Of a DNA stretch of 64,000 bases, positions 19,021-39,143 are shown one piece after another (within the stretch, counting starts at the first letter, position 1; each line of letters starts with the position of its first letter). The notes below the pieces were generated by a model. The model saw only the letters and a program-made list of their open reading frames with translations. It did not search any database and had not been told where the DNA came from. The position numbers and the translations under genes are program-made. Source of the stretch: Ignavibacterium sp. (GTDB lineage Bacteria; Bacteroidota; Ignavibacteria; Ignavibacteriales; Ignavibacteriaceae); the NCBI GenBank assembly GCA_018335755.1, contig JAGXRK010000061.1, forward strand, positions 6,646 through 70,645, read 5' to 3'.

Positions 19021-19045
19021 ACTTTCACAATCACCATTGTCATAT
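19021..19045. repeat. attL core: 25-bp perfect direct repeat of the PP2C gene 3' end
   Basis: actttcacaatcaccattgtcatat is identical to 36592-36616. Confidence 0.85.
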
Positions 19046-19112
19046 TATTATCCTTTATTCCCCATAAACAATTGCATTATAAAAGTTTATAATGATTTTT
19101 AAAGTGCTGAAG

Positions 19113-21124: not shown

Positions 21125-21372
21125 TAAAATTCCTTAGAAATGTGATTTAAATATAATGATTTAGTCATAATCTTAATATTGCAGTTAATTAATAATATAG
21201 TACCGAGACTTACACGACATAAAATCATTTGAAGAATGGCAAGTAATTAATATACCCCTCAATAGGTAACCTGAGAGCCTAATTAATGAGATTAAAACAC
21301 TTTTATGTTAAAGTTGATATAATATACGGACTTTCCGAGTTATGGGACTATTTGTTAAGTGACCGTGCCGAG

Positions 21373-21462
21373 TTTACATAAGTCAACATTATCGGACACA
21401 AGACAGAAAGACAATATTCGTAAAGATGATTAGCCGTGCTCGGATAATGTTCCTTATGTAAA
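21373..21462. other. Long imperfect hairpin (10 + 9 bp stem) in the non-coding region
   Basis: tttacataag-tc-aacattatc (21373-21393) pairs with gataatgtt-c-cttatgtaaa (21443-21462). Confidence 0.6.
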
Positions 21463-21533
21463 TCTGGCTGACAATGTAAGGTTTAACCTCCCCCAAAATG
21501 CCAAGTGGCTTGACTTACTGTCTTCTTTAGTTT

Positions 21534-21994
21534 GGGAGTGAGCTGAACGATAGTGGAACGAAAGTGAAGCGAACGAGCAAAGTAAAGACCTGCCAATGAA
21601 AAGTGATTACTACCAATGTCAAAATAGTTGCGACCGTAATGTAGGTTGGATCATATCCAGACGGAATGAGGGCGCAATTATTTTGGACAGCAAGATGTTT
21701 TAGTTTGCGAATGAAGTCATCTGTTAACAATGGCGTAATGAGCAAATTAAAACAAACCAATGTTACGTGATTATTGACAAGCCAAAAAATATCTGCGACT
21801 GAATGAGGATTCCGTTCGAGCGGAACCCGGAATGAAGGAGCAGTTATTTTTTGTTAGAAAGATTATGCTAAGTTATACTATCGCTAGCGAGTGAGGTCTG
21901 CGAAGCAGGGCGAACGAGTGGTCTTCCCATTCATATTTTATAACAGTGCCTTGAAACCATAAGCGAGCGAGATTCTCGATGTAATCGAGTGAGC
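21534..21994. repeat. Cluster of at least 9 degenerate GA(A/G)(C/T)GAG-type motif copies with local hairpins, relatively GC-rich and non-coding
   Basis: Examples: gagtgagctgaacgatagtggaacgaaagtgaagcgaacgagc, gaatgagggcgc, gcgaatgaag, gcgtaatgagc, gaatgagg-attccg...cggaat-gaaggagc, gctagcgagtgaggtctgcgaagcagggcgaacgagtgg, aagcgagcgagattctcgatgtaatcgagtgagc. Stops occur in all frames. Confidence 0.6.
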
Positions 21995-22036
21995 AGATAA
22001 AAAAATAATATAAATGTTTTTCTTAAGGGAATTTGA

Positions 22037-22045
22037 GGGGGGGGG
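22037..22045. repeat. G9 homopolymer
   Basis: gagggggggggtacc, a conspicuous G-run in an AT-rich genome, about 100 nt downstream of the DUF3883 gene stop. Confidence 0.6.
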
Positions 22046-22143
22046 TACCGTTTGTTAAAATTGAAATGTAACCAACCATAAGTGCAGCATATTTTTGCTG
22101 AAATTTTTAGAAAACCGTACTGTCCTCTTTATATTATATAAAC

Positions 22144-23676
22144 CTATATCGCTGTACCTTTAAACACTGCTACATACGAATCAGGATACATATCTAGAAC
22201 CTTAAATAAGTTACCATTAATACGATACAGATTACCTGTATTATTTTTCTTGTCAAAATTAAATACACGATACAACCAATATGATTTATTTTTGAGCTTA
22301 CTAAATTCTAACTCAGTTGGAGAAATATTAAACTGTGTATCCTTATCTTTTGATTTTGTTGTTTTAATTTCAATAAATATTTCGTTTCCAAATTCATCAT
22401 AAGATTTAACATCGTAACCCGTTCCGTCTCCTTTTTCTCTAGAAATATGCTCAATCTTCATTCCTGGTTTAAGTAAGTCCTTAAGCCTATTTTTCTCAAA
22501 CTCAATCACGAGTAATTCTCCAGCTAGTCCAAGTTTTTTTGATTCTCTTTGTCGCTTTATATGATCCGTTTTATAGCCTTTAAAAGTATGAATAATAGGC
22601 AAAAGTATTTTGGGATCTGGCGGATCAACTTCTTCGAGAGAATTTTTTGGTTGTTTTATTTTTCCCTTACCCCAAACATATTTTATTGCATCCTCATATA
22701 ACTTATCGTATTTAGATATGAAATTGTTTGTATTATTAATTAAAGTTGCCCAATTAAGTTTTTTAATTTCATCCAAATTAATTTCAATCCACTCAGAACC
22801 ACTACCAGCTATAAAGTTATCGAATTTACTAACCTGTTCTTTTGTTAATTTAATACCTCCTGACGGGCGACTTCTTTGGCAGTCTAATTTGTAAATTAAA
22901 GCCGTTCTTGAATAATCAATACCAACAGTAAAATATATAAGTCTATCTTTATCCTTTTGTTTAAATGCTTTCCCCCAAGTATAGGCGGAATAAACACCCA
23001 TTATTTGCCACATAGTATTAGTTTCTTTAACATAGCCGGGTACAGAAATAGACTCTAACCAATAATTAGTCTTATCATATAACTTCTCTCTTATCTCTTG
23101 GCCAATTTTAACATCTTCAGGATTATTTTTTCTATAAGGTTTCCCTGCATACTTTGAATATCTGACAATATCAGTAGTTAAGAAGAATTCAGGAATCTCA
23201 CTAAATGTTTTTTTAACTTGCTCAAGAGTTTCAGGCAAGATGAAATAATGTATATGTGCTTTGGGTTTATATGGTGTGCCATTAATATTATGAAGTTTAT
23301 AAAATGAATCGAGTACTGAATCTAAGAAACTACTTGATTCAAGTCTTTTCCCATAAATTTTCCGAAAATTTTGATCTGTTAAATGACCACTTCTATCTAT
23401 AGCATAATGTTTATCGTGAAGTTGAAAAGTATTATTCTTGTAACCGACAAACTTACTTGGAGCAAATTCAATATTTCCATTAATTATTTCAAGAATGAAG
23501 GTTTTACCACTTTTTAATTTATGCTTATAATATTCTGCCAAACGATTTTTTCTATTATTACGATAGGAAATCAACGTTTTAAAATTCTTTAAGACCTGAG
23601 GTTGATTTACTACATAATTTTCGTCCATCTTCACACCATTTTTATTTTTTAATTTATATAATTTTTGTTTGCTCAT
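22144..23676 (-). CDS. DUF3883 (PD-(D/E)xK-like) C-terminal domain protein with an uncharacterised ~370-aa N-terminal region
   Basis: C-terminus LAGELLVIEFEKNRL...GYDVKSY...IFIEIKTTKS...YWLYRVFNF matches the DUF3883 pattern. ATGA overlap with the upstream gene. Confidence 0.65.
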   Translation of the reverse strand: MSKQKLYKLKNKNGVKMDENYVVNQPQVLKNFKTLISYRNNRKNRLAEYYKHKLKSGKTFILEIINGNIEFAPSKFVGYKNNTFQLHDKHYAIDRSGHLTDQNFRKIYGKRLESSSFLDSVLDSFYKLHNINGTPYKPKAHIHYFILPETLEQVKKTFSEIPEFFLTTDIVRYSKYAGKPYRKNNPEDVKIGQEIREKLYDKTNYWLESISVPGYVKETNTMWQIMGVYSAYTWGKAFKQKDKDRLIYFTVGIDYSRTALIYKLDCQRSRPSGGIKLTKEQVSKFDNFIAGSGSEWIEINLDEIKKLNWATLINNTNNFISKYDKLYEDAIKYVWGKGKIKQPKNSLEEVDPPDPKILLPIIHTFKGYKTDHIKRQRESKKLGLAGELLVIEFEKNRLKDLLKPGMKIEHISREKGDGTGYDVKSYDEFGNEIFIEIKTTKSKDKDTQFNISPTELEFSKLKNKSYWLYRVFNFDKKNNTGNLYRINGNLFKVLDMYPDSYVAVFKGTAI

Positions 23677-24611
23677 AATGTTAATCCCAATGTTGCTATA
23701 ATTCTATTCTTAAGAATTTCCATATCTGCTTTAATTGTATCAACACTCCAAATAACAGTGGTTAAATGATTAGTATCAAAGTGTGTTTTGTTCTCTCTGA
23801 ATATAGTTCTCTCACATAAATAAACGACAGGTATTTTACATCCTTCAGCAAAACCCGCTTCCCAATATGCACCACTATTACCGTGGGTTAGGTCTACTAA
23901 AAGTAAATGAGAATTACGGATCTCTTCTCTTAATTGATTATCCATAATTCCGGCTTTCAGTCTTTCATCTAACGTGACCAAATCAATTCCCATAGAATTC
24001 AAGGTCGGTTTAAAGTATTTTTTATATATTGAATCAAGTAAATGATCATTGTATTGCATAGCCATAAATGCAATTCTATTTTTATTCGGTTCTTCATTTA
24101 AAGACTCAACAAATTCCCACCCATCTGGTGTTAAATGTCCTTGAAAATCATCTCCAGAATCAAGATAAGCTTTAATAATACCTTTCTTATCTAAATCGGT
24201 AGCTATATAATAAACGCCATTCCTATCTTTTGCACCAATTATTGAGGCAATTACATTCATATTCTGGATTACATCTTCACCAGGAGAATTGGTTTTATCT
24301 GCAATCCAAGAAACAAAGATGTTACTTTGCTCTTTTACAGACGGGAGATTAATATTTTGTAATATTGATTCTATATTTCGAGTATCAATCTTTGGCCCTC
24401 TATCACCTTGTTGATGATGACGAATCCAATAACTTAATCTAGAATTCCAATTTTTATAATCCTGTAAAGGAGTTACCGTAAAAATCAGCTGAGTAATAAC
24501 AAATTTTAAGCAACGAGGACAACGTGTAACAATTTCTTCACCGTGGTCATCAAATGTGATTTTGGCCAGCATACCACAGACTGGACATTTTGTAGGATCA
24601 ATCTCTTTCAT
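23673..24611 (-). CDS. Zn-ribbon protein with a C-terminal nucleoside 2-deoxyribosyltransferase-like (TIR-related Rossmannoid) domain
   Basis: N-terminal CPVCG...CPRC. C-terminal IAFMAMQY...LLLVDLTHGNSGAYWEAGFAEGCKIPVVYL resembles the NDT-family core with its conserved Glu. Confidence 0.55.
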   Translation of the reverse strand: MKEIDPTKCPVCGMLAKITFDDHGEEIVTRCPRCLKFVITQLIFTVTPLQDYKNWNSRLSYWIRHHQQGDRGPKIDTRNIESILQNINLPSVKEQSNIFVSWIADKTNSPGEDVIQNMNVIASIIGAKDRNGVYYIATDLDKKGIIKAYLDSGDDFQGHLTPDGWEFVESLNEEPNKNRIAFMAMQYNDHLLDSIYKKYFKPTLNSMGIDLVTLDERLKAGIMDNQLREEIRNSHLLLVDLTHGNSGAYWEAGFAEGCKIPVVYLCERTIFRENKTHFDTNHLTTVIWSVDTIKADMEILKNRIIATLGLTL

Positions 24612-24910
24612 TTCTTCAACCTTCTTTCAATCTTCTCATAATCCCCAAGATATGCTCTCATAAGGCACTTCCAGAGTTTGCCGTGATTTGGGTAATGGAA
24701 GTGTAATAGTTCGTGGACAATAACATATCTGCCCAGCTTTTTATCCATTTCTATCAATTCGTCATTGAAGTTTAAGTTGCCATCGGTTGAGCAGGATGCC
24801 CATTTACGGGTCATAGGACGCATAGAGATGCGTTTTAAAGCAATATCTAGCTTCACTGCATACTTTATCACTTCTTTTTTGAATTCGTATTTATCTTTCC
24901 AATTACTCAT
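24608..24910 (-). CDS. DUF45/YgjP-like zinc metallopeptidase (short form)
   Basis: HELLHFHYPNH (HExxH) motif. 100 aa. Overlaps the hsdR stop by 8 nt. Confidence 0.7.
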   Translation of the reverse strand: MSNWKDKYEFKKEVIKYAVKLDIALKRISMRPMTRKWASCSTDGNLNFNDELIEMDKKLGRYVIVHELLHFHYPNHGKLWKCLMRAYLGDYEKIERRLKK

Positions 24911-27824
24911 TGGCTTTTAGTATAATGTTGAACAGATCATCAATAATTTGTTTAGCTTTTTCTATGTCATCCATTCCTGATAAAAGAGTTAAATACATTT
25001 CCTGCCTGAGTTCTCTTGTCTCTGCTTCACTTGCTTGCCAATGGGGATATTTCTTAAAGCTCTCCGTAAAACTGTTAGCAGTGTTATCACTGTTACTCAA
25101 TCCATACTCTTTAAGCTTAGTTGAAAAGAAAAATGTTAAATCATCAAATCCTTTTGATTTCTTTTCGTCCTCCTGGCTTAATGCAGCTTTGATTAATGCT
25201 TCGAGTTCTTCCAATGCTGACTGAGTTGTGATTATTCTATCTTCATAATTTTCCTGGATGGCTTGTGCTTTTTCCTTAATAGAAATAAGCACAAGATCAC
25301 CGCTATGTTCTTCTGCATATTTACCAATGGTTTTTACGAGGTTTATGACTTTTACATTATCCGGTTTCTGTCCTGCTTTAATCAGCTCAATGGTTTTTTC
25401 ATTTAGCTCATAGGCATCTGTTGTCATTTCAAGATTTTCTATATCAACATTCTCTTTTACCAAATCAATCGTCTTTCTCTGAAATTCTTTGTCAACATAA
25501 ATGTGCTTTGCATAGGCATTGCGGACAATGTAATAGATCTGAGTTAGAAGTTTATAATTATCAATGTACGGTCTTAAAAATGCATCAGGTGAAATGATTT
25601 CATACAGCATTTCAATTTCTTTATAGAACTTAAAGAATTCTTTGCGTTTGGATTTAGATTTGAAATGCTCAATCAGCTTATCAATTTCTTTATCATTGTA
25701 AGGTGGTTTTATCAATCCTAAATATTTTGGAGCTATGCTTTCAAGATTTTTCTTAAATAAATCTTTAAGAAGTGCTAAATCTTTGATAACACTTTTTATA
25801 TCATCAGAATCAAAGGCTAATGCTTTTTCCAGCTTATCAAATATTCCAATAAAATCTATCACCAATCCGAATGGTTTCTTCTTTCCTTCTTCATCTTCAT
25901 AAGGACGGTTGACTCTTGCTATTGCCTGAAGCAATGTGTGATCTCTCATTGGCTTATCTAAATACATTGCATAGAGTATCGGTGCATCGTAACCGGTTAA
26001 AAGCTTTTCTGTAACGATTAGAATTTTTGGTAGGATTTCATTCTTTGCAAAATTCTTGCGGATGGTTTTTTCTTCTTCTTTATCTATATGAAATTCTTTT
26101 AGCTGTTCTGTATCGTTATGTGCACCTGTATAAACAACCTGAGAGTATTCGGGGGGCAGGTATTTATCCAAAGCTTTTTTATAAAGCGCACAAGCTTCTC
26201 TATCTACTCCGACTAAAAATGCTTTATAGCCAAGATTCTCGACATAGGTTTGATAGTGCTCTGCAACAAACTTTGCAATCTTCGCTATTCTACTTTTGCC
26301 TTTTAGGAAATGTCTTGTCTGGACAGCCTTTTCCAGAATCTTATTTAATTCATCAATATCACTTACACCTTCAGCTTCTGCCAGCTTTAGAAATTCCTTT
26401 TCAAGAATATCTTCAGGTACTCTTAAATCATTTGGGGCAAGTGAATAATAAAGAGGTAATGTCGTACCATCAGTAATAGAATCTGAAATCGAGTATTTAT
26501 CCAGATAACCTTTAGGATCATCTATTCCGAAAGTTTTAAATGTTCCCCTGCCGTAAGCTGTTTTATCTATTGGCGTACCTGTAAATCCGATTAGAGTTGC
26601 ATTCGGAACAGCAGCCATTAAATAATTTCCTAAATCACCGGAGGTTGTCCTGTGTGCTTCATCCACTAAAACATAAATATTTTTTCGCTTGTTGATGTTG
26701 GGAGGCATATCATTAAACTTATGAATCATACTAACTATCAAACCACGATAATCATCTTTTAACAAATCTCTCATTACTGCAATGCTGTTTGCGTGAGCTA
26801 CATTCTGAATTCCCAATGACGTAAGATTGCGAATCATCTGGTCTTCAAGTTCGTTTCTGTCAATCAATAAAATGATAGTTGGTTTATCTGCTTCCGGTTT
26901 TTTGAATAATAGCTCTGATGATTTGATGATTGTGAATGTTTTACCTGATCCCTGAGTATGCCAGACCAATCCCCTGCTCTTTTGAGTATCTAAAGCTCTT
27001 GTTACAACCTTTTCCACCGCTTCTACCTGATGCTGACGCAAAATATATTTATTTAACTCCTCGTCCTTCTCAACAAAGACAATATATTTTTTCAGATAAG
27101 CTAAGATTCTGTCTATAGCAAAAAATGTTTTTACCTTTGATTCAAGATTTCCAATCTCTTCGCTTTTCCAGTTGAAAAGATTTTTGCGATTTGTATTCCA
27201 GGTTACTCCATATAAAAAACCAAGTGCTTCTGTTACAGTGTAGATTTGCTGAGGGATAAGCATTTCGGGGGTTTCTCTATGGTATCGTCTTATCTGATCT
27301 ATTCCGATTGCAAAGGCTTCATCTTTGGTTGCGTTTTTACACTCGATAACAATTACAGGAATGCCATTAATAAAGAAGACAATGTCTGCCCTGTTGCCAT
27401 ACCTGCCGTTGTTAAAATAATATTCTTCCGAAACGTGATAAGTGTTATTGGTGTGATCTTCAAAATCTATAAGCTTGAGGTTATACTCACGGTTATCTTC
27501 AGAGCAAAAGAATGTTTTTTCTCCCCTGAGATATTGAAGGAAATCTTTGTTACCCTGAATATCTGTACGAAGGCTTTTAAGTTTTGGAAGAAGGTTGTTG
27601 TCTTTTTCAGTGTATTTGGGATTAAACTTAAATACTTTTTCAAGTAAAATATCTTTTAAGAATGGATGTGAGTTTTTAGCTCTTTCTGATGGTAATGTTG
27701 CTGAAGTATCGAAGTGTCTTAGTTTCTCTGTTTCTGACTGAGTTAATATCTCCCAACCAATTTTAGATGAATATTCTAAAATTCTTTTTTGAACAGTTGT
27801 ATGTTCTGTGAATGAATCGCTCAT
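24903..27824 (-). CDS. hsdR: Type I restriction enzyme R subunit
   Basis: N-terminal nuclease ADIVFFINGIPVIVIECK. Helicase motifs HTQGSGKTFT, VLVDEAHR and GFTGTPI. QAIARVNR. 973 aa. Confidence 0.9.
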   Translation of the reverse strand: MSDSFTEHTTVQKRILEYSSKIGWEILTQSETEKLRHFDTSATLPSERAKNSHPFLKDILLEKVFKFNPKYTEKDNNLLPKLKSLRTDIQGNKDFLQYLRGEKTFFCSEDNREYNLKLIDFEDHTNNTYHVSEEYYFNNGRYGNRADIVFFINGIPVIVIECKNATKDEAFAIGIDQIRRYHRETPEMLIPQQIYTVTEALGFLYGVTWNTNRKNLFNWKSEEIGNLESKVKTFFAIDRILAYLKKYIVFVEKDEELNKYILRQHQVEAVEKVVTRALDTQKSRGLVWHTQGSGKTFTIIKSSELLFKKPEADKPTIILLIDRNELEDQMIRNLTSLGIQNVAHANSIAVMRDLLKDDYRGLIVSMIHKFNDMPPNINKRKNIYVLVDEAHRTTSGDLGNYLMAAVPNATLIGFTGTPIDKTAYGRGTFKTFGIDDPKGYLDKYSISDSITDGTTLPLYYSLAPNDLRVPEDILEKEFLKLAEAEGVSDIDELNKILEKAVQTRHFLKGKSRIAKIAKFVAEHYQTYVENLGYKAFLVGVDREACALYKKALDKYLPPEYSQVVYTGAHNDTEQLKEFHIDKEEEKTIRKNFAKNEILPKILIVTEKLLTGYDAPILYAMYLDKPMRDHTLLQAIARVNRPYEDEEGKKKPFGLVIDFIGIFDKLEKALAFDSDDIKSVIKDLALLKDLFKKNLESIAPKYLGLIKPPYNDKEIDKLIEHFKSKSKRKEFFKFYKEIEMLYEIISPDAFLRPYIDNYKLLTQIYYIVRNAYAKHIYVDKEFQRKTIDLVKENVDIENLEMTTDAYELNEKTIELIKAGQKPDNVKVINLVKTIGKYAEEHSGDLVLISIKEKAQAIQENYEDRIITTQSALEELEALIKAALSQEDEKKSKGFDDLTFFFSTKLKEYGLSNSDNTANSFTESFKKYPHWQASEAETRELRQEMYLTLLSGMDDIEKAKQIIDDLFNIILKANE

Positions 27825-27959
27825 TTATCTAAATTTTATTGATACTAAAAAATAACAAATCTATATTTGTTTTAGAATTTCAACCCGGTTTGTTCGAAGT
27901 GTGACGTTATGCGTCAAGTAGTAAGTAGAACAAGCGGGATTTTTTACTTATCACTTATC

Positions 27960-29210
27960 TTATCCCACTAATTTTAATTCAATATCTTTAACCCGAATTT
28001 GACCAGACATTAGTTGATTTAAAGATGAACGGAAAAGATCTTTATTATATTGAAGTAGTGTCTTTTCCTGATCGATTTTCGAATTCAAGGATTCTAAATA
28101 CTCACTCATCAAATTTTGTTCTTTAATATGTGGCAAACCAACTTTAATTTCGTGGATAATACCTTGTGTAACCAGAGGTTGACCACCTCTATTACGAAAT
28201 CTGTTCAAGTCAAAATATGTTAGAAATTCTTTCATATAATTAATGTTAAATTCTCTCAAAACTTTTTTCGTGTACAAGGCATTATCACTAATCCAACTTA
28301 CTCCTTTTGTAACGTAAGTAACTCCGCAATATTCTCCGACTCGCCCAATAACTAAAACTGGCATATCAAGCATTTTCAACTCTGTATATCCTAATATTCC
28401 ATTACCACCAAAAATTGGAATCGTTTTTAGATTATCAGGTAATTCAGAAATATCTTTAGGCCTTCCTTTACCACTACTTAATTTGAATAATTTGCCAAGC
28501 TCAATGACTTCCCAACTTTTCGGTATTGGACCAATCTCTGTTTGTTTTTGTGGTTCGCCGTTAAGTCCCTCCGTAAAGAGTTTTTGCATTAATGCTTTTT
28601 TAAGCTCTTGAGTGGTTTTAATTATTTGTTCCTGTGTTTCGATTGCCTGCTGTATTTTGGAAAGCACGTGAGCAATTTTTTTTTGCTCGGGGAGAGATAT
28701 TTTAGGTATACCTGCTTTTTCTTTATAAGAAGTAAAATTTAAATTTCTGATACCTGTTGTTCTCGCCTGAAGAGAATCAGTCCTACCTGATAAGTAAAAA
28801 TGAAGCAATGAATAAAAAACATATTTGGGAAGAAATTCATTCTGATTAAGTGTTCTTAAACAACTTGTGAAATTACTAAAGCTATATTCACCCGTAGATC
28901 GATCAAAAAAAACAACTCTACCGACTGGTTGAGTTGGTCCACCACCTGATCTTTCAATAATAACGTCACCAAAGAATAATTTTCTACTCTGATACTGTTT
29001 TTCTTCGACATCTAAGACTGCAACATCCGAATAATCGACTATTCCAAATTCTGTGAAGTTTGTATTTCTAATTACAGTTACTACTTTAAATGGTGGTTTC
29101 TTCCCTTTCCATAATCCATTTATCGTTTTAAAGTATTCCTCATTTTCCAAGGGAATTAAATTCCAATGCTCAGGGAGTAAACCGATATCAGTATTTTTGA
29201 AGTTGTCCAT
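27960..29210 (-). CDS. hsdS: Type I restriction enzyme S (specificity) subunit
   Basis: Two TRD halves separated by the central helical spacer LPEQKKIAHVLSKIQQAIETQEQII, with a matching C-terminal helix. 416 aa. Confidence 0.85.
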   Translation of the reverse strand: MDNFKNTDIGLLPEHWNLIPLENEEYFKTINGLWKGKKPPFKVVTVIRNTNFTEFGIVDYSDVAVLDVEEKQYQSRKLFFGDVIIERSGGGPTQPVGRVVFFDRSTGEYSFSNFTSCLRTLNQNEFLPKYVFYSLLHFYLSGRTDSLQARTTGIRNLNFTSYKEKAGIPKISLPEQKKIAHVLSKIQQAIETQEQIIKTTQELKKALMQKLFTEGLNGEPQKQTEIGPIPKSWEVIELGKLFKLSSGKGRPKDISELPDNLKTIPIFGGNGILGYTELKMLDMPVLVIGRVGEYCGVTYVTKGVSWISDNALYTKKVLREFNINYMKEFLTYFDLNRFRNRGGQPLVTQGIIHEIKVGLPHIKEQNLMSEYLESLNSKIDQEKTLLQYNKDLFRSSLNQLMSGQIRVKDIELKLVG

Positions 29211-29211
29211 T

Positions 29212-30840
29212 TCAAGCTGCCTTAATATAAAGCTTGAATGAAATATCTTCTACCTGAATAAAATTTTCTTTCAATACCTTTTTAGAATAATCATTATTTA
29301 TTTTCTTTAAAAGAAACATTGAATATCTTCTTTCAAGTTTATTCATATTTCTAGATTTATTTTTAAGTAAATCACTCAAAGGCTTTAGTTTACGTGGATG
29401 TTTGCTCCTGAGGATATCAACATTTTCAATAAAATATTTTAGACACAACACTCTTGAATACCACTGATATTCTAAGAAATGAGATTTTTTATAAAATCTA
29501 TAAAAGAATTCAATTTTATTTTTGGTTTTATAATATCTTATTAAAAACTGAAGCACAAAAAATTCAGTGTGAGGGTAAATATTTTTTGGTGAATAAAGAT
29601 ATCGGACTAGATATTCGCCAAGTCTAGGATATTTGAGAATCAATGTATTAAGAAACGTATAACTGCTCTCATTTACTTTATAAGATAATTTTGGATTGCC
29701 TAATATTTCATCTACAAACGAACGAGCTTCTTTATATGACTTTATATATTTAGCATTTTTTGTTTTACCAGTAAAGACTTTAAAGGCATAATTAGCAGGC
29801 GAAAACCATCTACCTCCTTTGTTTTTTTCAGTAGTTTGTGTGAGTCTACTAAACATATTTAGAATTGAATCTGCACGTTTGGTCCTTAAAATTTTATCAA
29901 ATTCTTTGAAGTACCAGTAATTATAATATTCTTTTCGATTTAATATTTTAATTTTTTGTTCATTTAGATTAAGTTTTAATTTTTGTAAATAAAAAGAACA
30001 TACCTGAATTATCTTTTGAGCATCATCCTTTTTACCATTAAAACTAATCCAAATATCATCAGCGTATCTTGAATAAATATGATCATTCTTATTAAAGATC
30101 TTATTCAAATATGATGTTATGTCAACATCGAAACTATTTAAATAAAAATTAGCTAAAAGTCTTGACATTTCCCCTAGTTCTTCCTGAGGGATACCAACAT
30201 TAGCCGGATTGTAACCTAAATCTCTTTTGTCAGCATTACGTAAAAAATAGAATAATAAATCAATGACATTTTGCTTTTTATTTATCTTACTTCTCAATGT
30301 ACGCTCTAGAATATCTAGATTTATATCGTCATAAAAGTGTGCAATATCAATATGAATGTAATACTTAAACTTTTTATCATATAAATATCTTGCAAGTTTC
30401 TGATATTCACCCCACTCCTTTCTAAAACCATAAATGTTTAATGCATTTTCATATGCTGGATCATAGGTTGTTTCCTCTATTTTAGATTCATCAAATTTCA
30501 AATCCTTTGTAATTCTAAATCCACCAAATACGTTAGGGATAAGCTTAATGACTGAAATTATTTCATCCTGTATTTGTTTAATACAGTAGTAATAAATAGA
30601 AATATCACTGAGATTAAATATTTTAACTTTACGTACTACACCTTTAGACTTTGGAGCATATAAATAATATGGAAGCTTGAAAGCGTAATTATAAGATACA
30701 AGATCATCAACAAGTTCATTTAGAAATTTTTCTCTATTTACATCACGATAATTAATAATATCCCTGAAAAAACTCTCTTTTGTTATGTGCTTCCAGAATG
30801 GAATATCTATTGATTTGATGAATTCTGATTTATCGATCAT
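29212..30840 (-). CDS. Stand-alone reverse transcriptase (Abi/UG-like) with a helical C-terminal extension
   Basis: RT motifs in order: PKSKGVVRKVKIF, HIDIAHFYDDI, GIPQEELGEMSRLLANFYL, YSRYADDIWISF, LNLNEQKIKIL. No maturase, endonuclease or RNase H region recognised. Confidence 0.8.
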   Translation of the reverse strand: MIDKSEFIKSIDIPFWKHITKESFFRDIINYRDVNREKFLNELVDDLVSYNYAFKLPYYLYAPKSKGVVRKVKIFNLSDISIYYYCIKQIQDEIISVIKLIPNVFGGFRITKDLKFDESKIEETTYDPAYENALNIYGFRKEWGEYQKLARYLYDKKFKYYIHIDIAHFYDDINLDILERTLRSKINKKQNVIDLLFYFLRNADKRDLGYNPANVGIPQEELGEMSRLLANFYLNSFDVDITSYLNKIFNKNDHIYSRYADDIWISFNGKKDDAQKIIQVCSFYLQKLKLNLNEQKIKILNRKEYYNYWYFKEFDKILRTKRADSILNMFSRLTQTTEKNKGGRWFSPANYAFKVFTGKTKNAKYIKSYKEARSFVDEILGNPKLSYKVNESSYTFLNTLILKYPRLGEYLVRYLYSPKNIYPHTEFFVLQFLIRYYKTKNKIEFFYRFYKKSHFLEYQWYSRVLCLKYFIENVDILRSKHPRKLKPLSDLLKNKSRNMNKLERRYSMFLLKKINNDYSKKVLKENFIQVEDISFKLYIKAA

Positions 30841-30855
30841 TTTTAATTTTATATT

Positions 30856-31515
30856 TTAGCAACAATTGGTGCTTTTATTTGAAAGCGCATTTATTCTATT
30901 AGGATGCTTCTTGGTTAAATCTTTTCCATATAATTTTACTTTTGCACAACTAAACAAAAAATCATACAATTTCTTGCCAATATTTTCATCAAGCTTATGT
31001 GGTTTTGATCCAACCCCTGCTTTGAAAGCCTTAATTAAAAAATCCGTTTGTAATCCATTTTTATTTAGAAATGGTAAAATATCAAGAAGATTATCTTTTG
31101 CATCTTGAGGCTGGAAACTCGTATCTGGCTCTGCTTTTAACGTATATCTTTTTCTTTTTTTAAATGGATGGTTATGCACCCATTTGTAGTGATGTTGGAA
31201 AGTTTGTTCATTATCTACAATATAATCATTACGACTTATTTTATTATTGTCCTTCCAAAATATTTTTTCAGCTATATGAAAAACACAATCACAGTTCAAT
31301 TCTGTAAAGTCATTAAGAGATGGTTTCCCTGAAACCCAAAAATTAACCTGATTCTTATAGTTTGAAAGTTGTGTTATGTGACAATAAGTATGCAGAAATT
31401 TTTCATTCCAGATATAAGGATCCTCATTTCCTCCAAAGCTATCGTGATAAATCGTAAGCTTTCCATTATTATATCTACATCTTTCCGGATGATATATTAA
31501 ATAAAAGGGACCCAA
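30856..31515 (-). CDS. Hypothetical His/Cys/Trp-rich protein, predicted RT partner
   Basis: 219 codons with no stop and no internal Met. TTG start 1 nt after the hsdM stop. No family recognised. Motifs HDSFGG, CDCVFH and HHYKWVHNHPF. Confidence 0.55.
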   Translation of the reverse strand: MGPFYLIYHPERCRYNNGKLTIYHDSFGGNEDPYIWNEKFLHTYCHITQLSNYKNQVNFWVSGKPSLNDFTELNCDCVFHIAEKIFWKDNNKISRNDYIVDNEQTFQHHYKWVHNHPFKKRKRYTLKAEPDTSFQPQDAKDNLLDILPFLNKNGLQTDFLIKAFKAGVGSKPHKLDENIGKKLYDFLFSCAKVKLYGKDLTKKHPNRINALSNKSTNCC

Positions 31516-31516
31516 C

Positions 31517-33076
31517 TTAATACCCCAACTTTTTAAAAATATCTTTCAGCTCTTTATCGATAGCCTTTTGTTCCTGTTCAAGTTCTTTCAGGTCTTCGAG
31601 TATTTCGCCGATAGGTCTGTAAGTTTCCTCTTCTGCTGTGTGTATGTAGCGAGTTGGAGATAAGTTATAATCATTTTTTACTATTTCATCTTTATCAATA
31701 ACTTTGCTAAACTTTTCAATCTCTTTCCAGCTTAAATAAGCATCAACAATTTTATTCTGGTTTTCATCTGGTATAAAATTCTTTGGCTGTCCTTTTTGAA
31801 ATTCTTTAGAGGCGTTAATGAGTAAAATTTTATTCTTTTTACTTTTATCTTTCTTCCTGTTGAGAAACAGAATTATTCCCGGTGCAGGAGTATTATAAAA
31901 GAGATTTTCAGGTAAGTATAACACACCTTCAATTATATCCTGTTCTACAAACCATTTCCTAATTTCTTTTTCTCTGTTTGTACTTTGATTTCCCGAACCT
32001 CTTGAGACTGCACCTGTATCTAAAACAATTCCTGCTCTTCCTTTTTCATTTAAAGAAGCAAGAATATGTTGAGCCCAACCCCAATCTGCTGTACCGTTTG
32101 GTGGAAAGCCAGCACTAAATCTTTCAAGCTCATCATTTTCATAAGTCTTTTGATTAAAGTTACTCTGATTCCACATTGGATTAGCAGTTACAAGATCAAA
32201 TTTTCTTAGTCTGCTTCCATCTCTGAATTTTGGAGAGTTCATTGTATCACCAATTTCAATGGTACCTTCCATATCGTGAATAACCATATTCATATTAGCC
32301 ATTGCCCAGGTGCTTGAGATATATTCCTGTCCGTTTAATTGAAGCGGTGCATATTTTTCTTTAGATCGTAAATGCATTTTGTCCTGAAGGACCAACTGGC
32401 ATTTAATAAGCAATCCTGCAGAGCCACAGCAAGGATCATAGATTTCCTGCCCGGGTTCAGGATCGAGAATACGAGCTATAATAATTCCAACTTCTTTAGG
32501 TGTGTAGAATTCACCTGCACTTTGTCCTCCACCTTCAGCAAACTTTCTAATCAGATATTCATAGCTTCTGCCAATGATATCCGGTTCAACGTCTTTAAGG
32601 CCTAATCTCTTCTTGCTTATTTCTTCAATCAGGTTGCTGAGCTTGTCATCATCAATATCTCTTTGTCCGTGAGTGGTTGCGTTAAAATCAACTCTGTCAA
32701 TGATACCCTGTAAGCGTGGGTTTTCTCTGGCTATGTCTCTCATTCTGTTAGTAAGCTCTTCACCGATCTTTGTTGATAGCTTACGAATCACAGACCAGGT
32801 AGGATCATCAATGTTTTCAGGTCTTAAAGGAATGTAAAAGCGGATTAATTTTCTATCTTTTTCAATTAGCTTTAGAGCTTTTTGTTTATCACTAATCTTG
32901 TCCGTGATTCTTTGGACTTCGTCATCAAATACATCGCATAGTCTTTTTACAAAAATGAGGGGTAGTATAAAGTCTTTGTACTTCGGTGCGTCTTGCGCTC
33001 CTCTGATGGCGCAAGCCGCATCCCATATCCAGGATTCAAGGGATTTGTGATTGTTGTTATTTGACATATATGTCAT
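31517..33076 (-). CDS. hsdM: Type I restriction enzyme M subunit (N6-adenine DNA methyltransferase)
   Basis: HsdM N-terminal domain, motif I DPCCGSAGLL, motif IV ANPMWN. Confidence 0.9.
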   Translation of the reverse strand: MTYMSNNNNHKSLESWIWDAACAIRGAQDAPKYKDFILPLIFVKRLCDVFDDEVQRITDKISDKQKALKLIEKDRKLIRFYIPLRPENIDDPTWSVIRKLSTKIGEELTNRMRDIARENPRLQGIIDRVDFNATTHGQRDIDDDKLSNLIEEISKKRLGLKDVEPDIIGRSYEYLIRKFAEGGGQSAGEFYTPKEVGIIIARILDPEPGQEIYDPCCGSAGLLIKCQLVLQDKMHLRSKEKYAPLQLNGQEYISSTWAMANMNMVIHDMEGTIEIGDTMNSPKFRDGSRLRKFDLVTANPMWNQSNFNQKTYENDELERFSAGFPPNGTADWGWAQHILASLNEKGRAGIVLDTGAVSRGSGNQSTNREKEIRKWFVEQDIIEGVLYLPENLFYNTPAPGIILFLNRKKDKSKKNKILLINASKEFQKGQPKNFIPDENQNKIVDAYLSWKEIEKFSKVIDKDEIVKNDYNLSPTRYIHTAEEETYRPIGEILEDLKELEQEQKAIDKELKDIFKKLGY

Positions 33077-33299
33077 CTGTAGAATTGATATCGAAAAGAA
33101 AAACCGGGAACATTTATAACCCAGAATTTATTATTGTACATAAATATAAATAATATTATTTATTTATTCTTTCTTATTTATCAACTATTATCATTTTGCT
33201 ACAATCACTTCGATCACACCGATAACGATTCCTATATGCACAAAATATAACTAGTGAATTATATCCGGCGAACCGTTACCGATGTGAGAAGTGTTACTT

Positions 33300-34244
33300 C
33301 TAGTTGGGTGATGGAAGTTTATATAGTCCGGTTTTGCTGCCCTTTATTATTTCCCCTGCAAGCAGCATCTTTCTGAGTAGCTGGCTTATCGATTCCCTTG
33401 ATTTTTGAAGTCTCTCAGCCATTTGGCCAACCCTGATTTCAAGGTCATATTGTCCTCCGAATAGCTCGATGATTTCCTGACGTTCCACTGTTGATGCTGA
33501 AATAATATTCTTATCCATTACTATCCAGCGGTGAGTTTCCTCATCCTGTGTCAGCAAATAATTTTCCTCCTTAACATCCCGTCCTGTAACGTGAAGGATA
33601 TAACCATTGGAATGCTTTTTGAGTATTAAAAGTGTATCCGGGGCAGCAGTGATTCCGGAAGTACCTACAATCTCATCAAAGACAGAATCGGCTTCACTTT
33701 TCCTTGTATGATGAATTAACAATATACAGAGTTGATTTTGAAGTGCAATATTCTGAAGCTCTGCCATAAAATCATATTCATCCTGGAATGATAAGCCAAA
33801 TTTTCTTTGATCTTTTGAGATTGCATTCCCTAGGGTATCGATGATAATTAAATTAAGATCCTCGTTCTGATCGACAGCTTGTCTGATCATTTTGATTCCT
33901 TCTAGATGAAATCGTCTAAATTCTGATTGATCAAGAAAAAACAGGTCACTTGAAGCTTCACCATCTTTAAGCATAGTATTTATTCTGTCTTTCAATCTTC
34001 TAAAATTATCTTCAAGTGCGATATACAAAACTTTACTTTTCTGAGTATCAAAATAATCCATAGTTTGTGCACCTGCAGAAGAAGCGAGTGCTAATTGTGA
34101 AGATAACCAGGACTTGCCTACCTTTGGCCTGCCAGCCAGGAGGGCTAAACCCTCCGGCAGCAGATCTTTAATTATCCAATTTATAGGTGGCAACTCCATT
34201 TTCTGGATTTCATTCGCTGAAACTAGTTTTAGATTTTCTTTCAT
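33300..34244 (-). CDS. AAA_25/RepA-like RecA-fold ATPase of the mobile element
   Basis: Walker A LLAGRPKVGKSW and Walker B LIIIDTLG. This architecture is common next to integrases. Confidence 0.7.
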   Translation of the reverse strand: MKENLKLVSANEIQKMELPPINWIIKDLLPEGLALLAGRPKVGKSWLSSQLALASSAGAQTMDYFDTQKSKVLYIALEDNFRRLKDRINTMLKDGEASSDLFFLDQSEFRRFHLEGIKMIRQAVDQNEDLNLIIIDTLGNAISKDQRKFGLSFQDEYDFMAELQNIALQNQLCILLIHHTRKSEADSVFDEIVGTSGITAAPDTLLILKKHSNGYILHVTGRDVKEENYLLTQDEETHRWIVMDKNIISASTVERQEIIELFGGQYDLEIRVGQMAERLQKSRESISQLLRKMLLAGEIIKGSKTGLYKLPSPN

Positions 34245-34257
34245 TTCTGTAGTTCTC

Positions 34258-34536
34258 CTAATTTATAGTTGTATTTAGTTTTGATTGTAATTCTTCGATA
34301 GTATAAATTCTATCCTTTTCCACCCATTCTATGAGGTCCGATTTTTTGAAGAGAAGCTTCTTTGTGCTTTTATAGAATGGGATTTCCCGTTTGAAGACCA
34401 TCTGGTAAATAGTAGTCTTTTTCAGCTTGAGAAAGCTGCTGGCTTCATTGATATCCATAAACTCTGTTTCTTTTGTTTGTATAGAGTTTAGAATGGACTC
34501 AATTTTGTTTAATTGGTGTTGGATTTGCTTTTCCAT
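34258..34536 (-). CDS. Excisionase-family / MerR-like helix-turn-helix DNA-binding protein
   Basis: INEASSFLKLKKTTIYQMVFKREIPFYKSTKKLLFKKSDLIEWV. Confidence 0.65.
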   Translation of the reverse strand: MEKQIQHQLNKIESILNSIQTKETEFMDINEASSFLKLKKTTIYQMVFKREIPFYKSTKKLLFKKSDLIEWVEKDRIYTIEELQSKLNTTIN

Positions 34537-35385: not shown

Positions 35386-36423
35386 TTAATCTCCTAATAT
35401 TGGCAATCGATTTATTGCTTCTACTTTTTTCTCATCCACTATTTTTGCATAAACTTGAGTAGTTGAAATACTTTTGTGTCCAAGTAATTTACTAACAGTA
35501 TAAAGATCAGTACCCATAGTCAGCGATAGTGTTGCAAATGTGTGTCGTGCTGTGTGAAATGATACTCTTTTATTTATTTCAGCTTTCTTAACCCATCTTT
35601 TTATGTTAGACCAAGTTACTTCTTTTTGCGGTATATGAAAAACAAATTCATCTTTTTTACTTGAAGATTTTTCATCCAGTATCTTTTTTGCTGTGTGTGC
35701 TAATGGCAGATATTCAACACCGCCTGTCTTCTTCTGTCTGAATTCCAGTTTATCATTTTTAATATTAGACCATTTTAAATTTATTATATCAGAATATCTA
35801 AGTCCAGTGAAACAGGAGAAAATAAAAGCATCCTTAACCTCTTTATTTCCTAAAGGTGTTTCGTTAAGCTTTTTAACCTCTTCAATCGTTAGATACTCCC
35901 GGTTAGTCTCTGGCTTCTTTATGTTATCAACTAAGTTGCAGGGATTATTTTGTATTATCATCTCTTTTACTGCACGATTCAGAGCGTACTTAATATTAGT
36001 GTAATAATGCCAGGCAGTTATTTGAGATACTTCATTAAGTAATAATTTCTTAAATCCGGTTAACCATTCGGGTGTGATCTTCTGGAATTCTACTTTACCA
36101 CCGGTATAATCCTCTAACTTCTTCAGCGTACATTGCCAACTGCTGCGATCTGGCGGTCTCTCATTAACAAGTTTTTTAAAGTAGGTAACGAAATCATCTT
36201 TTCGTTTTGTTTCACTTACGAATCCGTATGAATCGTGATTCAATTCTAATTGCCTTTTGGCTCTAATGTTCTCTGCTAGCTGAAGTGTGGCTTTATTTGC
36301 GATTGGATTATCTTCCAAAAAAAGATTAAGATGTTCAAATTTTCGTTGCCCCTGGTGGTATATGTCCAGGAATAAGCTATACCGATTGTTACTGCGTTTT
36401 CTCTTCCTAATTTTTACTGACAT
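35386..36423 (-). CDS. Tyrosine-type site-specific integrase with an N-terminal Arm DNA-binding domain
   Basis: Catalytic region GLRYSD...HTARHTFATL...LLGHKSISTTQVYA. Basic N-terminus RKRKRSNNRYSLFLDIYHQGQRKF. Confidence 0.9.
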   Translation of the reverse strand: MSVKIRKRKRSNNRYSLFLDIYHQGQRKFEHLNLFLEDNPIANKATLQLAENIRAKRQLELNHDSYGFVSETKRKDDFVTYFKKLVNERPPDRSSWQCTLKKLEDYTGGKVEFQKITPEWLTGFKKLLLNEVSQITAWHYYTNIKYALNRAVKEMIIQNNPCNLVDNIKKPETNREYLTIEEVKKLNETPLGNKEVKDAFIFSCFTGLRYSDIINLKWSNIKNDKLEFRQKKTGGVEYLPLAHTAKKILDEKSSSKKDEFVFHIPQKEVTWSNIKRWVKKAEINKRVSFHTARHTFATLSLTMGTDLYTVSKLLGHKSISTTQVYAKIVDEKKVEAINRLPILGD

Positions 36424-36584: not shown

Positions 36585-39143
36585 TTAGGAAACTTTCACA
36601 ATCACCATTGTCATATCATCGTTTACTTCCGTAGTACCGCGGAAGTTTTTAACTGACAGCCACACCTCATTCATTATCTGTGTTGATCTGTAACCGGATT
36701 TTTTAATGAGAAGTTCTTTAAGATTTTCCTCACCGAAAAGTTCATCGTGTTCATTCATCGCTTCGGTTATGCCGTCTGAGAAGAAAGCATAAATTTCACC
36801 CTGAAGCAGGTTCATTTCTTCTTCAACCAGAGTCTGCTCAAAGATGATTCCCTTTTCAAGTCCGAGTCCGATACCTCTTGACTTAAGTGACTGAACTGTT
36901 CCGTTGGTTGCTTTGAATAATGGAAGATGTCCCGCCCTGCAGAATTTAATTGTTCGTTTTTCAGTATCGAATAAAGCGAGGGTTAATGTAACGAACCAGT
37001 TCCGCTCCATTGATTCATACATTTTCTTATTCACTTCAACCAGAATGTCCTTAGGTGAAAGACTGTTATTACTTGCGAGCTGTATCATAGTCTGCACCTT
37101 GGTCATATAAAATGATGCGGGCAGACCTTTACCGGAAACATCACCGACAGCAACAAACAATTTTGTATCCGATACCTGTATAAGATCAAAATAATCTCCA
37201 CCGACCTGCATTGCAGGAATCATCTCGCCGCAAATGTCAAGTCCTTGCATATCAGGTATACATCTGGGTAAAAGACTTTGTTGTATCTGTCTTGCTAATT
37301 CAAGGTCCCTTTCCAGTTTCAGCTTTTCAGATTCAGATTCATACAGCCGTGCATTCTCAATAGATATTGCAATTTGATTGGCAGCCGCACCGAGCAGTTC
37401 GAGGTCCTTTCCGGCAAACTGACTGCCGGAGTATTTTAAACCAAAAAGAAGAAGTCCGACTACCTTTGCCTTAACATACATTGGCACTGCAGTATAAAAA
37501 CCTTCGTCTATCATCTGTCTGAAATTGTCCGGGAATATGCGTTCAAAATCATTCTGCTGAATTACAGGTATATCATTTGTTAAGTTTTTATCTCTTATAA
37601 ACTGAGTCAGGCTGGAATTACTTATCAGGCATTCTGTTTTAGTTATACCGAAACTTTTTATAAGATTCAGATGACCGGTTTTGTTATCCCGGATAAGAAT
37701 ACCAAACTTCTTTAGCTGCAATGCTTCAACAAAAGTGGATTGAGTTATATCAAGCACGTTATCGAGTCCGACTACAGTAGGAATGTCATTGCTGAACTTC
37801 ATCAGAATTTTCTGATGGGCAAACTGTTCAGGATAAAATCTTTTAGTAAGAAAATCCTGGAAACGGTCCTTTGTTGATTGAAAGATCAAAGCAAATACAA
37901 TAAAGAAAATACCGGCAATAATTCCCTGCTGATCAGTTCCCAGTGCAGTGCTGATGCTTTGTCCTATCACATAAATCACAAAGAAATAAATTGCAGCTAT
38001 TCCAAGTGTGGCTGTTCCGTATATTATTGTGTTCTTTAATACTTCACCTACATCAAGAAGTTGATATTTGAAAATGGCATAAGCAAAACCTAATGGAACT
38101 AAAATCATAAGAACAACCGGCATATAATATTCCGGTGAATTATAAATTGTATCAGAAATTGCAGGGGCAATTGTATTCATATAAACGCCTATCAGTAAAC
38201 CAAACACCATAGATATTAAAAATATCAGTACGGGCTTTCTTTGCGGTGTTTTTCTTACAGACCAGTATTGAAGGAACATTGAAAGTATTGCAGCCATCAT
38301 TGCAGTTGTTATAACAATTTGCATTACATTTCTGTATTGCACAAAATAAGAAACAGAAATTATCTTTGCGTTAAGGGAAAGATGACCGATTATATTACCG
38401 GATACTGACATTAATAGCGGGATAAGAATCATCACCAGCTTAACCCAGGTTTTTTCTATGAAGCTGAATGGCTTTGGGAATGTCCAGACAAAAGCCAGAA
38501 GTACTATAGGTAAAAAGCTGTTGCCTATGATAGTAAGACTGCCTATTACTACACCAAGTACCGGCAATTGTTCAAATAGCTGCTGCATCCCTCCGAACCG
38601 GGGAATTAAAGCCTGCATTGCAGTGAATACTGCCAGTACACCTAATGCATAAAAAAGTCGTTGTGAAAGTCCATCCGGTTTAGCTGATAATACTATAAAT
38701 CCGATTAAAAGATAAATTAAGGCACTTATTGATGCGGCAAGTGTGCCAAACTCAACAAGCTTTTTGATGTATACTTTAGTTTCAAAAATTTCACCATCGG
38801 GCTTCTTAACTTTGTAATGAACCAGTTCACCATAGCCAAATGAATTGAGAATATTTTGAGCTTGAAACGGATTTAGTATTTCTCTGTTATCTATTTCCAG
38901 AAGCTGATAGCCGTCCCTTATACCGGCATTCCAGGTTACACCGTTCTCTTTAACATTGGAAAAGTAAAGATCTACATTCTGTTCCATTGAGGTCATAGCT
39001 TTTTTAGGCAGCCACAGACACTCATCGTTTGAGGCAACATTAACTTCAAGCGTATAATAGATGTTCAAAATCGCAACGGCAATCAGGATGATCGTAAAAG
39101 CAATTACGATGTTAGAACGATATTTTAAGAATAGTGATGTCAA
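36585..39143 (-). CDS. Membrane-bound GAF-domain PP2C (SpoIIE/RsbU-type) serine phosphatase
   Basis: About 10 TM segments, then a GAF-like region, then GGDYFD, VGDVSGKG, FSDGITEA and DDMTMVIVKV. TTG start at 39143. Confidence 0.8.
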   Translation of the reverse strand: MTSLFLKYRSNIVIAFTIILIAVAILNIYYTLEVNVASNDECLWLPKKAMTSMEQNVDLYFSNVKENGVTWNAGIRDGYQLLEIDNREILNPFQAQNILNSFGYGELVHYKVKKPDGEIFETKVYIKKLVEFGTLAASISALIYLLIGFIVLSAKPDGLSQRLFYALGVLAVFTAMQALIPRFGGMQQLFEQLPVLGVVIGSLTIIGNSFLPIVLLAFVWTFPKPFSFIEKTWVKLVMILIPLLMSVSGNIIGHLSLNAKIISVSYFVQYRNVMQIVITTAMMAAILSMFLQYWSVRKTPQRKPVLIFLISMVFGLLIGVYMNTIAPAISDTIYNSPEYYMPVVLMILVPLGFAYAIFKYQLLDVGEVLKNTIIYGTATLGIAAIYFFVIYVIGQSISTALGTDQQGIIAGIFFIVFALIFQSTKDRFQDFLTKRFYPEQFAHQKILMKFSNDIPTVVGLDNVLDITQSTFVEALQLKKFGILIRDNKTGHLNLIKSFGITKTECLISNSSLTQFIRDKNLTNDIPVIQQNDFERIFPDNFRQMIDEGFYTAVPMYVKAKVVGLLLFGLKYSGSQFAGKDLELLGAAANQIAISIENARLYESESEKLKLERDLELARQIQQSLLPRCIPDMQGLDICGEMIPAMQVGGDYFDLIQVSDTKLFVAVGDVSGKGLPASFYMTKVQTMIQLASNNSLSPKDILVEVNKKMYESMERNWFVTLTLALFDTEKRTIKFCRAGHLPLFKATNGTVQSLKSRGIGLGLEKGIIFEQTLVEEEMNLLQGEIYAFFSDGITEAMNEHDELFGEENLKELLIKKSGYRSTQIMNEVWLSVKNFRGTTEVNDDMTMVIVKVS
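36592..36616. repeat. attR core: 25-bp perfect direct repeat inside the last codons of the PP2C gene
   Basis: Identical to 19021-19045. On the minus strand it encodes MTMVIVKV. Confidence 0.85.

Follow-up and report, generated by a model that had tools for sequence, protein, structure and literature searches.

The 64,000-nucleotide (nt) stretch of Ignavibacterium sp. DNA analysed here (contig JAGXRK010000061.1 of assembly GCA_018335755.1, positions 6,646 to 70,645; hereafter the window) carries on its minus strand a type I restriction-modification (R-M) operon in which two further genes lie between the methyltransferase gene hsdM and the specificity gene hsdS. One encodes a reverse transcriptase (RT) and the other, orf219, is an open reading frame (ORF) of 219 codons, so that the order of the window ORFs is hsdM-orf219-RT-hsdS-hsdR-ygjP. 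The RT, a long form within the UG13b group, has the Class 1 UG/Abi architecture "RT + alphaRep" and is independent of orf219, the two genes being separate passengers of the operon and not a two-gene unit. The UG13b group was known already, and what is new is a long-form variant embedded among R-M genes. The reading that we favour, to which we give a probability of roughly 0.68, is a layered defence with independent cargo, in which a type I operon on a mobile island would co-express two independent accessory genes, the RT serving as an autonomous second-line effector. An earlier note on this stretch had described the ORFs, the motifs and the gene junctions, all of which were confirmed from the minus-strand coordinates and by reading the junctions, and had proposed the profile-based classification of the RT that is given below.

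The RT matched the PADLOC profile RT_UG13b with E = 2.8e-119 and 397 bits, RT residues 2-442 aligning to profile positions 1-417 of 430. The next-best PADLOC group, UG21, reached 111 bits (E = 1e-32), and the only Pfam match was RVT_1 (E = 2.9e-15). UG13b was also the best PADLOC match for all of the RT relatives tested, both short and long forms. The window RT shares with the UG13b group the profile match, the combination of an RT with C-terminal helical repeats in a single polypeptide, and the defence-island setting. However, it differs from the group in its length, 542 amino acids (aa) against about 440 (437-457 aa for canonical members), with a C-terminal extension of about 100 residues that the 430-position profile does not cover. 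It falls in a long-form subclade of UG13b RTs of about 540 aa, the members of which occur in two contexts, either embedded in R-M operons or linked to Sa_NUDIX genes. The division of UG13 into UG13a and UG13b, made partly on length, is due to Mestre et al. (2022, PMC9226505). The earlier suggestion that the architecture is not a described system does not hold for the RT itself, which falls in this described group.

A structural model of the RT was predicted with AlphaFold2 (AF2) from 31 homologues, giving a mean predicted local distance difference test (pLDDT) score of 88. The model consists of an RT domain, roughly residues 1-320, followed by an all-helical, alphaRep-like domain, roughly residues 320-542; the stretch from about 302 to 541 is helical throughout and predicted with high pLDDT. 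When the full-length model was compared with the Protein Data Bank (PDB) by Foldseek, the top matches were AbiK (E = 2.4e-12, TMq 0.60), DRT4/UG15, DRT6, Abi-P2 and AbiA, the DRTs being defence-associated RTs. The UG13b profile and the AF2/Foldseek results therefore agree on an RT of the UG/Abi type that stands alone and ends in a helical domain, as had been read from the motifs. The view that the protein lacks maturase, endonuclease, RNase H and primase modules was also supported, and its C-terminus is an AbiK-like alpha-repeat domain. The solved Class 1 RTs AbiK, Abi-P2, DRT4 (UG15) and DRT6 share the full-length fold of the window RT, with palm and fingers followed by an alpha-repeat domain; they are single-gene effectors without a noncoding RNA (ncRNA), and the window RT is likened to them by fold. 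However, they show no detectable sequence kinship to it and, unlike the window RT, have not been described inside R-M operons. Profile searches of PDB sequences gave no sequence-level link from the RT to AbiK or DRT4, so that the likeness is at the fold level only. Among 79 RT relatives, R70, D165 of motif A, D261 and D262 of motif C, and K296 are invariant, while K64 is lysine in 77 and arginine in 2. Because the catalytic residues are invariant, the enzyme is predicted to be probably active.

The RT also shows generic similarity to the RTs of retroelements, with NCBIfam scores of 84 bits for group_II_RT_mat and 44.6 bits for retron St85 and with sequence-level PDB matches to group II and retron RT domains, and such similarity could be taken to mean that it is part of a mobile or templated retroelement, i.e., a group II intron, a retron or a diversity-generating retroelement (DGR). 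However, both scores are far under the curated cutoffs of 300 (group II) and 235 (retron) bits, the maturase/endonuclease domain is absent and the C-terminus is the alpha repeat described above, no intron, msr/msd or DGR RNA was found by Rfam, and coding genes directly flank the RT gene on both sides. Membership of the retrons was rejected on the score, the 15-nt spacer upstream of the gene and the lack of an Rfam match; membership of the group II intron RTs/maturases was rejected on the score, the lack of an intron RNA and the alpha-repeat C-terminus. The retroelement reading is thereby excluded for practical purposes.

A search for an RT-associated ncRNA gave no relevant Rfam match at the locus. 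The statement that there is no space for an ncRNA upstream of the RT was upheld, since the spacer is 15 nt, coding genes abut both ends and Rfam is empty. At two other loci with a related RT (L058 and L120; L numbers denote loci of the surveys described below), hsdM or hsdS overlaps both ends of the RT gene. Elsewhere in the operon, the gap between hsdS and hsdR holds a long hairpin at 27880-27943 on the plus strand, antisense to the operon, which scores 39.4 bits against the Rfam DUF3800-VIII RNA (threshold 40.2 bits) over the full-length model and has no counterpart at the sibling loci L050, L001 and L058. It was considered as an RT-associated ncRNA and rejected, being near-threshold, unrelated and missing in the siblings.

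The operon around the RT is a genuine type I system, since a single locus holds HsdM with HsdM_N and N6_Mtase domains, HsdS with the target recognition domains of Methylase_S, and HsdR with HSDR_N and a SWI2/SNF2 helicase; the claim that the RT is embedded within a type I hsd operon was thus verified. The genes are tightly packed. The TAA stop of hsdM (31519-31517) is separated by one base from the TTG of orf219 at 31515, 15 nt lie between the orf219 stop and the ATG of the RT at 30840, and the TGA stop of the RT (29214-29212) is again separated by one base from the hsdS ATG at 29210. No terminator-like sites were seen on the minus strand from the start of hsdM to the end of hsdS. Upstream of hsdM, the 223-nt gap contains a promoter-like site, but this match is weak evidence, because promoter-like sites are not enriched over shuffled sequences. 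The RT gene has a GC content of 26.5% and orf219 one of 30.2%, compared with 34-37% for the hsd genes. The 135-nt gap between hsdS and hsdR is variable, with a 194-aa ORF in L001, an 85-aa ORF in L050 and the hairpin in the window.

Since orf219 and the RT adjoin across a 15-nt spacer, they had been taken for a two-gene RT module, and a stronger form of this proposal is an obligate two-gene system in which orf219 would serve the RT as a sensor, a primer or an effector partner. The proposal was examined in two surveys. The orf219 survey used GTDB with one genome per species and yielded 49 loci, at each of which the 10 kb neighbourhood was checked for an RT; the RT survey comprised 89 loci, of which 9 were retrieved by looking up exact proteins and 80 by scanning metagenomes. 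A UG13b-like RT was found within 10 kb of an orf219 homologue at none of the 49 genome loci (0/49), and the RT was also absent from four further metagenomic contigs with orf219. On the other side, orf219 is missing from 88 of the 89 RT loci. The exception is L050, where the pair recurs between hsdM and hsdS at 74% (orf219) and 56% (RT) identity to the window, which would speak for a unit that is kept together. However, L050 represents a sibling island, with the integrase, HTH_17, AAA_25, hsdM, orf219, RT, hsdS, hsdR and ygjP in the window's order (HsdM 87%, HsdR 79% and integrase 75% identical). The earlier note had named a pair without hsd linkage in other genomes as a refutation of its proposal, and this single recurrence avoids that outcome in a trivial way only.

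Each gene was moreover found in an hsd operon without the other. L058 has hsdM-RT-hsdS without orf219, and L001, the closest sibling without the RT, has hsdM-orf219-SIR2-like-hsdS, with 83% (HsdM), 70% (orf219) and 72% (HsdR) identity to the window; its RT slot is occupied by a 316-aa SIR2-like gene (L001 10685-11635) with weak matches to Pfam SIR2_2 and PADLOC SIR2. All-against-all clustering of the neighbours at 47 loci gave no conserved partner gene of orf219, the genes downstream of which vary from SIR2-like, HEPN-like, caspase and kinase genes to housekeeping ones, and Mestre et al. (PMC9226505), in their main text, name no UG13b-associated gene. The obligate two-gene model, which is largely refuted by the survey, is therefore very improbable, and orf219 and the RT are independent of each other. 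Because the RT is swapped or diverged in the siblings and both the RT and orf219 are richer in AT than the hsd genes, the hsdM-hsdS junction appears to be an exchangeable cargo slot whose passengers have separate histories.

The orf219 protein represents a genuine conserved orphan family. The 130 homologues, at 43-100% identity, are nearly all 200-250 aa long, and a profile search run exhaustively over 1.84 billion representatives returned about 216 clusters only. The ORF has no internal Met and contains 11 His, 7 Cys and 4 Trp residues; its TTG start is credible, because translation of homologues begins at this residue too, from GTG in L050 and from ATG in L001. That the family is unrecognised, as had been stated, was supported by the lack of any match in Pfam, PADLOC or NCBIfam, together with a non-significant PHROGs match and a PDB sequence search that returned nothing. 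No Pfam match was obtained for any of 41 members of the family even at E <= 5, nor for 10 distant or longer relatives, and no informative fusions were found among close or distant members. The alignment shows the conserved motifs YLIYHP, NEDPYIWN, FLHTYCHITQ, NFWVSG, CDCVF, YTLKA and SFQPQ, and the invariant residues include C45, H46, C75 and D76 as well as the aromatics Y34, W36, F59 and W60. The family occurs in Ignavibacteria, Bacteroidota, Cyanobacteria and Chloroflexi. One homologue, P0026 (61% identity), carries the EukProt label of the red alga Purpureofilum and most likely reflects bacterial contamination of that assembly. A search of the IMG/VR viral contigs found no orf219 homologue and plasmids gave a single match; a phage anti-restriction gene was thus rejected on present data, given the absence from IMG/VR.

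The structure prediction and fold search suggested for orf219 were partly successful, in that the AF2 model is confident (pLDDT 91.5, predicted TM-score (pTM) 0.88), with an N-terminal beta-rich domain and a C-terminal alpha/beta part, but the family assignment that it affords is only weakly PUA-like, with every fold match at E >= 0.02. No significant Foldseek match was obtained in the PDB or in BFVD. Among the PDB matches (E = 0.02-1), 9 of the top 10 and 12 of the top 14 are PUA-like folds, namely ASCH, EVE/THYN1, YTH (rank 14) and MJECL36, the last of which is counted here as presumably PUA-like; the SRA domain of SUVH6 comes lower, at rank 19. The best probability was 0.90 and the TM-scores were 0.33-0.59 (0.45-0.59 by target). 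The best viral fold matches in BFVD also include EVE and ASCH proteins. The model thus suggests that orf219 is possibly a PUA-like domain that binds nucleic acids or modified bases, which is a lead and not a finding.

A more specific proposal is that orf219 reads modified bases, e.g., N6-methyladenine (m6A), and tunes the type I enzyme, either extending restriction to modified DNA or sensing methylation. In addition to the confident model and the PUA-like folds that lead the Foldseek lists, the invariant aromatics could make a cage, and orf219 lies within or beside R-M operons in L001, L006, L007 and L023. Stand-alone EVE and ASCH proteins are on record as neighbours of type I R-M systems (Bell, Wolf & Koonin 2020, bioRxiv 10.1101/2020.08.06.240630), and orf219 resembles these in its small size, its place within a type I operon and an N-terminal domain that is nearest to ASCH/EVE folds. 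However, it differs from them in the lack of an ASCH, EVE or PUA sequence-profile match, lenient thresholds included, in the weakness of the fold match and in its extra C-terminal domain, and they are mostly archaeal while orf219 is bacterial. In addition, an R-M gene lies within 5 kb of orf219 at just 5 of the 29 genome loci with good flanks, and many homologues occur in non-defence neighbourhoods. A modified-base reader is thus a tentative proposal for orf219, on balance doubtful.

The embedding of UG13b RTs among R-M genes recurs beyond this locus. Using iterated local profiles, an R-M methylase or specificity gene was found to abut the RT gene on the same strand, at -13 to +7 nt, at 11 of the 89 RT loci. 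When the count was restricted to RTs flanked by 1.5 kb or more on each side (n = 39), 7 abut an R-M gene and 12 have one within 5 kb. In a crude neighbour-joining tree, the R-M-abutting RTs are spread over at least six RT subclades and include short and long forms. L058 has the order hsdM-RT-hsdS-hsdR with overlapping junctions, its hsd proteins being 26-29% and its RT 38% identical to those of the window. L120 has hsdR-hsdM-RT-hsdS, L059 and L119 have hsdM-RT, and in L118, L121 and L123 the RT directly follows hsdS. The methylase-RT-specificity order is thus shared by hsd systems that are only 26-29% identical (L058 and L120). In L073, L080 and L122, the start of a short-form RT gene overlaps or abuts the 3' end of a large Eco57I/MmeI-type IIG methylase-specificity gene, so that the R-M link of UG13b is not limited to type I. 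In the searchable literature, the coverage of which is incomplete, no mention of RTs embedded in hsd or other R-M operons was found.

A second context was observed for the long-form RTs. In a clade from Firmicutes and Vibrio (L051, L052 and L054-L057; Vibrio vulnificus, Bacillus cereus and Clostridium sordellii), an Sa_NUDIX (SMODS-associated NUDIX) gene comes next after the RT gene, overlapping it or starting within about 110 nt; Mestre et al. (PMC9226505) give an Sa_NUDIX association in their main text for UG23 and not for UG13b. HNH, SIR2-STAND, AbiJ and McrBC genes, together with Sa_NUDIX and R-M genes, give the UG13b relatives a defence setting, and NucS-like genes also occur among their neighbours.

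The position of the RT between hsdM and hsdS recalls effectors that are guarded by the R-M enzyme. By this account, an HsdM-HsdS complex (or a type IIG methylase) would bind and silence the UG13b RT. Attack on the complex by a phage anti-restriction protein (e.g., Ocr, ArdA or Stp) would free or activate the RT, and abortive infection through toxic DNA synthesis would follow. Precedents are PrrC in EcoprrI (PMC12707154) and RonA with HsdMS, the Ronin system (bioRxiv 10.1101/2023.04.06.535777), each of which, like the RT here, is an accessory and presumably abortive-infection gene in or beside a type I hsdM-hsdS pair. The exact placement of the RT with 1-nt or overlapping junctions, the recurrence of this layout in the distant hsd systems of L058 and L120 and the 11 abutting loci in at least six subclades, type IIG included, are consistent with a guard, and an RT gene in or abutting hsdM/hsdS was found not only in the window but also in L050, L058, L059, L119 and L120. 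However, the effector here is an RT, while PrrC is an anticodon nuclease and RonA a small membrane protein. ronA is always linked to hsdMS (bioRxiv 10.1101/2023.04.06.535777); UG13b, in contrast, is not obligately hsd-linked, 27 of the 39 well-flanked RTs having no R-M gene within 5 kb, and no consistent hsd linkage was found for the family. The sister long-form clade is paired with Sa_NUDIX instead, and the SIR2-like gene in the slot of L001 fits a generic cargo slot. A guard role in the style of PrrC and Ronin is thus possible by analogy, but rather unlikely. A broader version, in which UG13b RTs would be R-M guardians of both type I and type IIG systems, restrained by the methyltransferase and triggered by anti-restriction, with untemplated DNA synthesis killing or arresting the cell and with orf219 as a PUA-like second input, is unlikely. 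A modified-base reader role of orf219 would be compatible with either a guard or independent cargo.

In the layered defence with independent cargo that we prefer, the type I enzyme would restrict incoming DNA as the first layer, and, on the model of AbiK and DRT4, the co-transcribed UG13b RT would polymerise DNA with a residue of its own as the primer and with no RNA template. DRT4 makes random single-stranded DNA without a template, primed from Tyr125 (PMC12783706), and Class 1 DRTs in general are stated to be untemplated (PMC13174585). The RT would then act as a second-line abortive-infection effector that requires neither an ncRNA nor orf219, and orf219 would be an autonomous single-gene accessory, possibly a PUA-like binder of nucleic acids or modified bases. 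Through the embedding, the RT and orf219 would be transcribed and mobilised together with the R-M genes, and their translation would probably be coupled as well. By analogy with its structural relatives, the RT is probably an untemplated, protein-primed abortive-infection effector.

Several points weigh against this reading. Carrying the enzymology of AbiK and DRT4 over to the window RT is an extrapolation, because the relation is structural and not by sequence. No universally conserved priming Tyr could be assigned in the 79 sequences of RT relatives; Y130, which lies in a low-confidence or disordered loop and is invariant in the long-form clade only and not in short forms, is a candidate only. 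The defence function of UG13b is a prediction only, which Mestre et al. (PMC9226505) drew from individual loci. A defence role of orf219 is not established, because the gene is also found in apparently housekeeping cyanobacterial neighbourhoods. Finally, the recurrent tight abutment of RT and R-M genes at 11 of 89 loci in at least six subclades may go beyond hitch-hiking.

The operon is carried by an integrative defence island of roughly 17.6 kb, which is bounded by a 28-nt direct repeat with 27 of 28 positions identical (Table 1). The two copies probably represent att sites, in which case the island was inserted at the 3' end of a SpoIIE/GAF gene.

Table 1. Features of the hsd operon and its island, in window coordinates.
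Feature	Position	Strand	Remarks
Direct repeat, left copy	19021-19048		Candidate other island end
510-aa protein, C-terminal NOV_C	22144-23676	-	PADLOC candidate PDC-S36, E = 2e-36; weaker PD-T4-1, TmtA
312-aa protein, Cys-rich N-terminus	23673-24611	-	Weak TIR / nucleoside 2-deoxyribosyltransferase-like C-terminus; PADLOC TIR effector E = 2e-4, Pfam below cutoff
YgjP-like metallopeptidase-domain protein	24608-24910	-	Overlaps hsdR stop; kept after hsdR in L001, L050
hsdR, type I restriction subunit	24903-27824	-	Pfam/PADLOC
hsdS, type I specificity subunit	27960-29210	-	Pfam/PADLOC
RT, UG13b (Class 1 UG/Abi), long variant	29212-30840	-	542 aa; PADLOC RT_UG13b
orf219, orphan-family protein	30856-31515	-	219 codons, TTG start
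hsdM, type I N6-adenine methyltransferase	31517-33076	-	N6_Mtase E = 3e-95, HsdM_N, PADLOC MTase_I E = 1.9e-171
Promoter-like site	33155-33184	-	TTGATA-18-AATAAT, 10/12 consensus match only; in gap upstream of hsdM
AAA_25 / DnaB-like ATPase	33300-34244	-	Same order in L050
HTH_17 (excisionase-like) protein	34258-34536	-	
Tyrosine integrase	35386-36423	-	Phage_integrase, Phage_int_SAM_5, Arm-DNA-bind_5
Direct repeat, right copy	36592-36619		Candidate att site, 3' end of SpoIIE/GAF gene; integrase gene just inside

Downstream of hsdR, the YgjP-like gene and the genes for the 312-aa and the 510-aa NOV_C proteins are likely additional defence cargo, the last of them being a candidate defence gene where the island ends. 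The N-terminal 172 aa of the 312-aa protein are 67% identical to a 593-aa SLFN_AlbA_2 protein of L050 (12526-14307) while the C-termini differ, which looks like a domain swap between the sibling islands. A segment of about 1 kb inside the putative island (21125-22143) has no ORF of at least 80 aa on either strand and no Rfam match; its GC skew is positive and differs from that of its surroundings. Just outside the island lie two adjacent genes for SpoIIE-type PP2C phosphatases with GAF domains (36585-39143 and 39305-41062, minus strand), the first of which encodes a membrane-anchored protein and is overlapped at its end by the right repeat.

The survey also corrects a tempting inference, since adjacency within one operon does not make a two-gene system. 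It adds to the known UG13b group a long-form clade with two alternative contexts, R-M-embedded and Sa_NUDIX-linked, and it adds orf219, a compact orphan family found both inside and outside type I operons, whose fold is predicted with confidence but cannot be assigned. Like many other UG/Abi RT groups, UG13b is predicted to be defensive. Its recurrent embedding among R-M genes, with junctions that overlap the methylase or specificity gene, is the most useful lead from this analysis and gives that prediction the form of a concrete hypothesis. The choice thus posed is whether the RT is merely a co-expressed second-line effector or is guarded by the R-M enzyme as PrrC and RonA are; if the latter were true, the UG13b guardians would be the first RT-based R-M guard system.

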